From: Eledone cirrhosa
Taxonomy: Eukaryota
Reading direction: 5' to 3'
Length of the DNA: 64,000 nt
Assembly (NCBI GenBank): GCA_964016885.1
Contig: OZ024743.1
Coordinates: forward strand, 33,108,001-33,172,000
The notes beneath the pieces were generated by a model that was not told the DNA's origin, made no database searches, and saw only the letters and a program-made list of their open reading frames with translations. Shown one piece after another: positions 54,674-55,463 of this stretch. Position 1 is the stretch's first letter, and each line of letters starts with the position of its first letter. The translations under genes and the position numbers were made by a program.

Positions 54674-54901
54674 GTATATATACATATATATGTTGTTATA
54701 CTTTGGGAGGGTCATATTTGTGTAATATTGCCAGAATTAATAACAGAACACACTCACTGTTTGGTTCGTTTTCGCTTTTCGCTTCTGTGTCTTTTATATC
54801 GGTAATCTAATTTATTCGGTCCTCAATGTTTGTTGCCATTGACTGACGAACGGTTAAAAATAATACAGATACAATATAGACACAAACACATATATATAGT
54901 T

Positions 54902-54945
54902 TATCAAAGTTCTTTCGTTGCACATCTGCAACATCGTCAGTGGTG
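54902..54945 (-). ncRNA. Minimal type I hammerhead ribozyme motif, stem I partly decayed
   Basis: Reverse complement CACCA-CTGACGA-T-GTTGCA-GATG-TGCAAC-GAAA-G-AA-C-TT-TGATA. Confidence 0.75.
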
Positions 54946-55220
54946 CTATTGTTTCCTCCCGTTACATTGAATGTCTACGCCATCTTTATTTAGTCTCTTA
55001 TATATTTATTTATTTATTTGTTTGTTTGTTTATTTTATTTTGTCTTCTTTGCGCATGCGTTTGCGTGTATAGTGTTTTGCTTGATGTGTATTCGTGATTG
55101 GGTGACTGTGTATTGGTTAATGTATTCTATGTTTTACTAGTGTGTGTTTATATGTGCTTGTTGTTATTGTGCTTGTGTATGTATTTATTTATTTATTTAT
55201 TTATCTATTTATTTATTTAT

Positions 55221-55427
55221 TTATACTTCTCTTAGGTCAGTGTTGTTTGTTTGGGTGTTGTTGTTATTCCATTCATTCTTTCTCTTTAGTCTTGGCCTTC
55301 TAAGTTCTATTTCACTGGCCTCTCTGATTTGCCTATCTGCTGGGTCATTTCTATGTTTAGATATTATTCTAATTTCTATGTTGTCTATGTTACCGTCGTG
55401 TTGTTGTCTGGCATGTTCGTATAGTAC
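55221..55427 (-). pseudogene. C-terminal fragment of a Penelope-type GIY-YIG endonuclease (no start codon)
   Basis: Hand translation VLYEHARQQHDGNIDNIEIRIISKHRNDPADRQIREASEIELRRPRLKRKNEW...stop; fits the HxxxxH...RxxxEAxxI....PxL(N) pattern, with K at the usual N. Confidence 0.75.
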
Positions 55428-55463
55428 TGACTATACGAACATGCCAGTACTATATGAACATGC

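Follow-up and report, generated by a model that had tools for sequence, protein, structure and literature searches.

Penelope-like retroelements (PLEs) encode reverse transcriptases (RTs) that are the closest relatives of telomerase, and an insertion in the RT fingers (IFD) is among the few features that have been used to link the two. Based on the available part of Craig et al. 2021 (PMC8557442), canonical PLEs with a C-terminal endonuclease (EN) lack an IFD, and an IFD-type insertion is restricted to the clades with an N-terminal EN, plus sporadic occurrences in Coprina. A 2026 preprint (10.64898/2026.07.22.740005) still recognizes eight PLE clades in its accessible portion. The rotifer elements Pen3 and Pen5a carry a short Cys-rich insert at the equivalent RT position (PMC3846280, accessible part), which suggests that insertions at this position arise repeatedly.

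Minimal PLE hammerheads have an extra base before stem II and a G-C first pair, and they cleave poorly and as dimers (available part of Cervera and de la Pena 2014, PMC4209133). For the Poseidon element of the anole, the accessible part of Frangieh et al. 2024 (PMC11167929) reports that the element's protein cuts both strands of AT-rich DNA, that cDNA starts at two internal sites which define the genomic tail, and that these starts are not homologous to the cut DNA. Hammerhead cleavage in that system needed protein and was unnecessary for insertion.

The DNA considered here, referred to as the window, is a 64,000-nucleotide stretch of the Eledone cirrhosa genome (contig OZ024743.1). It is quite probable that one short piece of the window is a truncated PLE whose sister copies encode an RT-GIY-YIG protein with a fingers insertion, and that the piece likely originated by nicking of a (TA)n tract and copying from one of two sites.

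A truncated PLE copy and its full-length relatives

The features of the window that belong to or adjoin this element and its relatives are as follows.

54212..54691 (array reaches 54693), no strand: (TA)n-type array, the likely target
54692..55430, minus strand: 5'-truncated copy of a family A PLE with EN tail and pseudo-LTR, short-end form, 93.5% identical to the full-length copy L072
54692..54715, minus strand: ORF start of the next unit (MTLPKYNN), stopping at the short end site; it opens long frames in L072 and L119
54903..54944, minus strand: predicted minimal type-I hammerhead with CUGACGA core, 6-bp stem II, 2-bp stem III and weak stem I
55221..55427, minus strand: end of the RT-EN ORF, with its final 68 codons and the stop; sister frames run upstream into VVYSIRC/YIGET
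55431..55472, no strand: fold-back junction at the 5' truncation point, with an inverted piece of about 40 bp (inverted self-match 90%)
55473..55662, minus strand: 190-bp repeat separate from the PLE, with an identical span at 13017-13206 and at several loci
47853..48206, plus strand: family B pseudo-LTR copy, long-end form with a tail of about 60 nt, 98.75% identical to L119
28352..28388, plus strand: family B stub of 11 nt leader and MTLPKYNN, short-end form, inside TA repeats

The family A piece is the 5'-truncated 3' end of an abundant PLE, an element of a known kind, and it is a dead fragment. A sequence-only reading of the window had proposed a (TA)n-embedded PLE with a GIY-YIG tail, a hammerhead and an ORF restart, and the anatomy it described is borne out. 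The ATG-less 68-aa frame and its stop (55427-55221, minus strand) carry HARQQH, RQIREASEI and PRL, the non-coding gap between that stop and the hammerhead is 276 nt (about 275 had been estimated), the hammerhead core lies where it had been placed (CTGACGA from 54940, GAAA at 54916-54913), and the restart at 54715-54692 runs into the TA array. The peptide encoded at 55221..55427 contains the HxxxxH of a CCHH finger together with the part of a GIY-YIG domain that holds the conserved E and N. In sister copies the VVYSIRC...YIGET core is found immediately upstream, so that assignment of the peptide to the C-terminus of a GIY-YIG domain is upheld.

Two boundaries had been drawn too generously. Alignments of 29 sister loci set in at 55431-55428. 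The first approximately 32 bases of the proposed span (54690..55463, read from its upper limit) are therefore not part of the element, which starts at 55430-55431; the remainder of the span stands. Embedding in (TA)n holds for the 3' end, as it does for element 3' ends in the genome, but the 5' side of the window copy abuts the 190-bp repeat rather than (TA)n. Membership of this repeat in the PLE was considered and rejected because the repeat recurs on its own; we take it to be SINE-like. It lies with a fixed span beside TA tracts at 55473-55662 (minus strand), 13017-13206 and 40032-40192. Another unit of 112-113 bp occurs in two to four tandem copies at 29192-29646, 53472-53704 and 61079-61309 of the window and is possibly an internal repeat of a SINE.

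A genome search in which 40 of 3372 candidates were scored recovered 39 sister copies of the window piece that are 93-96% identical to it. It is conceivable that short pieces of this type are retrozyme-like non-autonomous hammerhead parasites mobilised by a PLE, since numerous copies consist of a short fold-back of the pseudo-LTR and contain no coding sequence, and retrozymes have been proposed as PLE derivatives. The window piece, however, is collinear with L072, coding sequence included, the 5' ends of its sisters are scattered over more than 1.4 kb, and the locus has no fixed short unit in tandem, which makes this explanation very improbable. Truncation of a full-length PLE is the reading followed below.

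Sister copies add, upstream of the window piece, VVYSIRC...YIGET, a Cys linker, the thumb and RT motifs; the PLE-type RT that had been anticipated in longer copies is therein. As had also been predicted, MTLPKYNN opens a long ORF, which spans 695 codons and then meets a frameshift in the family A copy L072, and which is intact in the family B copy L119 (1269 aa, RT-EN). The L119 ORF contains TDKSG, motifs A, B' and C, a Cx4CxxC linker, CCHH and GIY-YIG, and it is flanked by two identical 432-bp pseudo-LTRs in a unit of 4273 bp (about 4.3 kb between pseudo-LTRs). Among 20 extended family A loci no intact ORF was found, and an intact ATG-to-stop ORF is present in one of 18 extended family B loci. 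The MTLPKYNN N-terminus is homologous to the N-termini of relatives. Octopus vulgaris supplies the best protein relative, at 67%. Families A and B share an Asn-rich stretch ahead of the RT that occurs in only 2 of 67 long homologs; Asn-rich inserts are known in rotifer PLEs (PMC3846280, accessible part).

The pieces at 47.85-48.21 kb and 28.35 kb had been grouped with the window copy as subfamilies of one family. They are related to it, but families A and B are 72% identical in nucleotide and 67% in amino-acid sequence over RT-EN (71.9% over 2291 nt; 474 of 710 aligned residues) and are therefore better treated as two families. Their differences number 162/117/332 by codon position and are concentrated at the third. 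The family B piece at 47.9 kb consists of a 39-bp inverted arm (47853-47891), a hammerhead (47948-47992) and the ATG at 48125; it forms a perfect hairpin (z -14.1), and 39 other top copies are 98-99% identical to it. The 7-kb AT microsatellite array at 45216-52378 of the window (3592 units) is broken by a family B insertion. Further diverged subfamilies with an identical ORF start are found at L165, L190 and L251. Contigs from four sequencing runs (three organisms) cover 27-30 of 30 family B bins, which has no bearing on expression.

In the full element the EN series VVYSIRC..C..YIGET..R..H..HxxxxH..E..N is present, and the domain is matched by a Neptune-type HMM at E 7e-15 (Z=1000). For the 69-aa peptide alone a Neptune-type HMM gave no match. 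The profile search that had been suggested for the 68-aa peptide yielded no Pfam GIY-YIG match, for the peptide or for the long frames; hhalign to the lineage profile gave a probability of 97.8, a value that is partly circular because that profile contains a family A copy. When Pfam was applied to lineage proteins, 2 of 10 reached E<0.01, both below the cut-off, and this poor detection suggests that the lineage is under-annotated. A PDB sequence search returned no real match, none of 171 candidates passed in a homolog search with the EN only, and the one locus from a metagenome scan was the query's own contig, with no hammerhead match and a 3' end that was too short.

The RT fingers insertion and placement of the lineage

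The distance from motif A to motif B' is 131 residues in the lineage protein P0121 and 124-162 across the lineage, which corresponds to approximately 70 extra residues. Hand counts from Fig. S1 of Craig et al. 2021, in the part of that supplement available, give about 60-63 for Penelope, Poseidon, Nematis and Neptune, 84 for Naiad-Amil, 105 and 122 for two Chlamys elements, and 118 for human telomerase RT (TERT). Neptune-type copies from the E. cirrhosa genome have 59-62. Measured from motif A to motif C (YxDD), the distance is 163-190 in 92 of 120 homologs from the first search and 165-201 in 64 of 142 new representatives, and so is long (163-201) in all 156 measurable homologs, those without a value being fragments or sequences missed by the pattern. 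The median for Neptune-like proteins is 96 (108 of 120 measured). Three Neptune-like proteins among P0122-P0241 have an A-to-C distance of about 310, either through an error of the pattern or through another large RT insertion.

Residues within the insert are conserved (for example E42 in 91%, P66 in 92% and W92 in 87% of 78 rows), and the insert is confidently modelled in a predicted RT-EN structure with a pLDDT of 93. The top 13 structural matches of this model are telomerase RTs (best Z 16.4, rmsd 3.8, 281 residues aligned), and the best match other than TERT has Z 13.9. Such a match would be expected for any PLE RT and hence singles out no likeness of the insert. Foldseek with the insertion region alone found nothing at E<=0.001; human TERT ranked 36th with E 6.8.

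These data bear on the idea that the RT is nearer to telomerase or to the IFD-bearing Naiad and Chlamys elements, in which case the insertion would have come from a common ancestor and the EN would have been attached at the opposite end. The insertion has the position of the IFD and a length similar to that in human TERT (131 versus 118, the latter counted from the accessible Fig. S1), TDKS occurs in the available Chlamys rows as well, and the insert is predicted to fold with confidence. Against this, no CxC motif could be seen in P0121 on the upstream side of its DK motif, canonical Neptune can be aligned with the N-terminal LPPKF..KLRW region, hammerheads are present, and the structural match to TERT is one that all PLE RTs should give. 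Common descent of this kind is regarded as improbable. The combination of a conserved insertion of approximately 70 residues with a C-terminal EN is, on the sequences compared, the new point of this analysis.

The lineage is marked by TDKSG, by GG[AP]IG at motif B' and by a linker spacer of 7 residues (63 of 97), compared with a spacer of 23 in Neptune-like proteins (76 of 82), and the EN is C-terminal to YxDD in 83 of the 97 proteins with a linker match. Its alignment with the profile of Neptune-type PLEs (hhalign E 1e-45) starts at the N-terminal motif and reaches into the linker. A profile search retrieved 3995 clusters at E<=1e-30, some of which will be other PLEs, and the best 150 score at least 399 bits. 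Hosts named among the homologs are O. vulgaris, the sea cucumber Holothuria leucospilota and the jellyfish Sanderia malayensis.

In a first tree (38 sequences, 360 columns, insert trimmed, two rows poorly aligned N-terminally) the lineage is monophyletic on a long branch (UFBoot 97) relative to Neptune-type and Hydra-type references taken from the E. cirrhosa genome and the homolog search. In a second (29 sequences, 199 columns, two rows skipped) it is again monophyletic (UFBoot 99), and a Nematis-like fragment from the L119 locus is its sister rather than a member. That row was labelled by eye against rows of the Craig supplement and lacks the A-B' region, and both trees are without named Penelope/Poseidon, Nematis, Naiad/Chlamys, Athena or Coprina sequences. 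Motif searches of the genome for Naiad and Poseidon references found none; a search with YGLPK[IV]HK returned Neptune-type families.

Membership in several clades was considered, and Neptune and Hydra were rejected. Neptune membership fails on the long Cys linker, DKG, the absence of an IFD and the RT grouping, none of which is matched, and Hydra membership on the absence of CCHH, the CxCx5C linker, DKT and a length below 3 kb. Penelope/Poseidon, for which the trees hold no reference, is at variance with the presence of both a Cys linker and the insertion, and Naiad/Chlamys is characterized by an N-terminal EN and a CxC motif that are not found here. Nematis shares the short Cys linker before a C-terminal GIY-YIG (spacer 7) and differs in having no fingers insertion.

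It is a substantial possibility, although one short of even, that the elements are ordinary Nematis sensu lato, already in Repbase or Dfam under a Penelope/Nematis name, and that the insertion is a marker without special function. The spacer of 7 residues in 63 of 97 proteins equals that in three Nematis rows of the available part of Craig Fig. S2, the octopus Nematis-like element is the tree sister and scores 116 bits with the lineage profile versus 91 with the Neptune profile, and O. vulgaris has 190 Penelope-like consensus families, which the accessible part of its annotation (PMC13282606) gives without clades. On the other hand, published Nematis, as far as the source is available, has A-B' distances of about 63, DKR/DKG and GLAMG, compared with 124-162, TDKSG and GG[AP]IG in the lineage; a long stem (0.76, UFBoot 99) parts the lineage from the Nematis-like row; and the insert contains conserved residues.

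A full-text literature search found no paper describing such a lineage. In the part of the Craig supplement available, whose reference set is incomplete, 9 of 12 diagnostic motifs are absent and the other three match other clades. Judged from these comparisons, the lineage is likely absent from the published clade scheme, and it is most likely a Nematis-related branch that is not described as such in the literature searched.

The genome contains other PLEs in quantity. Beside the intact family B element, at L119:8170-9213 (+), a 5'-truncated Nematis-like PLE with GLPMGSSLS, a short Cys linker plus a C-terminal GIY-YIG follows a TA tract; searched against prokaryote genomes, this fragment gave 0 of 65. 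It would be worthwhile to catalogue Nematis-type elements in an octopus-like genome. At least four Neptune-type families are represented at L137-L156 and L195-L224, one of them very young, with 97-100% protein identity for the 150 copies scored out of 29,702 candidates, and a Neptune-type element occurs four times in tandem at about 4.19-kb spacing at G000:C1:97366499-97379082. Several Hydra-type families are found at L157-L164, L076 and L080, with 1,088 matches to one RT motif pattern.

Hammerhead, element ends and a proposed mode of insertion

Stem II of the window hammerhead occupies 54932-54917 and the predicted cut falls between 54907 and 54906. A pattern built on the motif has 22,594 matches in the genome and one in the control. 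The core is conserved. Among nine hand-picked rows, every cell of stem II is paired, and two of its six pairs are compensatory between families A and B. Stem I is paired in 86%, and all three family A rows share a C-A mismatch there. Compared with family B, L251 has a compensatory pair in stem I. Stem III measures 2 bp and loop III is non-palindromic. Single-sequence folding of the window motif forms only stem II and is no better than shuffles (z -0.45), Rfam detected no hammerhead in 54700-55460 at E<=10, and for the whole window the matches listed (150 of 328) were microsatellite and hairpin miRNA noise only. The predicted motif fits the minimal PLE hammerheads of PMC4209133, down to their extra base ahead of stem II and their G-C first pair. 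It likely needs a dimer or the element's protein to cleave, and it may be dispensable.

A 21-nt start motif has 46,905 exact matches in the genome, as opposed to none for its reversed control. Counting the forward strand only, 10,844 of 23,354 motifs run into TATATATA within 4 nt, 8,805 go on into the tail, and about 16% of ends match neither of the exact patterns. In a series of 30 consecutive loci with a tail, two enter the ORF and 28 stop at approximately +68 to +83 in TA or TA-like repeats. Two end sites can be distinguished, a short one about +22 and a long one about +80 from the ATG. The first 100 motif places have 34 neighbours within 5.5 kb, 25 of them head-to-head; seven of these 25 pairs had one unclassed end, and the other 18 comprise 17 short+long, one long+long and no short+short pairs. 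One insertion outside a microsatellite (L118) has a 12-bp target duplication.

The junctions are also uniform in phase. Among 172 distinct ends, 58 of 83 short ends read AATATATAT, 42 of 55 long ends of family B read CGAAATATATAT, and 12 of 15 long ends of family A read CG[TC]TATATATA. In full elements the short, B-long and A-long sites continue with ATAT, ATAT and TAT, respectively, which would allow 3-4 nt of primer pairing without proving it. Even with no pairing, fixed sites of cutting and starting can produce a fixed junction phase.

Based on the anole Poseidon system, the RNA would extend across the pseudo-LTR to the start of the following ORF, and both end sites would be internal start sites of reverse transcription. 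The RT-EN protein would nick a (TA)n tract and reverse-transcribe its own RNA from one of the two fixed sites, with each nicked strand, as the paired ends suggest, extended from a different site. For the window copy, copying would have ceased after 739 nt and a short fold-back would have closed the junction. More speculatively, the nicked TA primer could anneal to the AUAU/UAU (3-4 nt) following both start sites, and the fingers insertion could stabilise this short internal duplex, as telomerase's IFD does.

A bolder proposal, put forward tentatively and considered rather unlikely, is that the lineage constitutes a ninth PLE clade of molluscs, echinoderms and cnidarians that combines a C-terminal GIY-YIG with a telomerase-sized IFD and primes in a telomerase-like manner at two internal template sites. 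Were this so, it would break the rule that pairs the IFD with an N-terminal EN, and intact family B would offer a natural way to test the role of the IFD outside telomerase. An old and extensive lineage in which the insertion is conserved and longer, and in which the domains come in the opposite order, changes the reading of the IFD as a character. An intact young copy together with some 47,000 ends also provides a ready system for tests of two-site internal priming.

Comparison with described PLEs and telomerase

The elements described here have the features of EN-bearing PLEs: a telomerase-related RT in a single ORF, GIY-YIG with CCHH, pseudo-LTRs, inverted 5'-truncated copies and a one-sided tail. 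The pseudo-LTR hammerheads, tails and (TA)n preference are already described PLE features. Poseidon of Anolis (PAc; PMC11167929, accessible part) likewise has two internal end sites inside the ORF that define the tail, AT-rich targets and a hammerhead. The tail is longer here (about 60 nt versus 30-40 in PAc), the targets are pure (TA)n, a primer-template match of 3-4 nt is possible, and PAc is without the features of a Cys-linker clade.

Hydra elements, including Hydra-1_Obim, resemble the lineage in their C-terminal EN, hammerhead, (TA)n preference and presence in octopus, but in the available description they lack CCHH and an IFD, are shorter than 3 kb and have DKT, whereas families A and B have CCHH, a 4.3-kb unit and the insertion. 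Neptune shares domain order, Cys linker, CCHH, a pseudo-LTR hammerhead and a microsatellite bias, and differs in its linker spacer (23 versus 7), its A-to-C distance (96 versus 170) and its position in a separate clade.

The Naiad and Chlamys elements and telomerase RT share an insertion at the IFD position. In the accessible sources Naiads also have the (TA)n preference and some Chlamys elements TDKS; the lineage differs from both in its C-terminal EN, its lack of a CxC motif and its hammerheads. Its insert is longer than the approximately 20 residues of Naiad or the 20-40 of Chlamys, although one Chlamys row of the available Fig. S1 has an A-B' distance of about 122. Likeness to Nematis (Nematis_Cr, _C4 and _Pp; PMC8557442, available part) extends to the C-terminal GIY-YIG with CCHH, the 7-residue linker spacer and the single ORF. 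Relative to these elements the lineage has approximately 70 extra residues between RT3(A) and RT4(B), TDKSG in place of the DKG of Nematis, GG[AP]IG at motif B' and extra segments following both motif C and the thumb, and its named hosts are octopus, sea cucumber and jellyfish.
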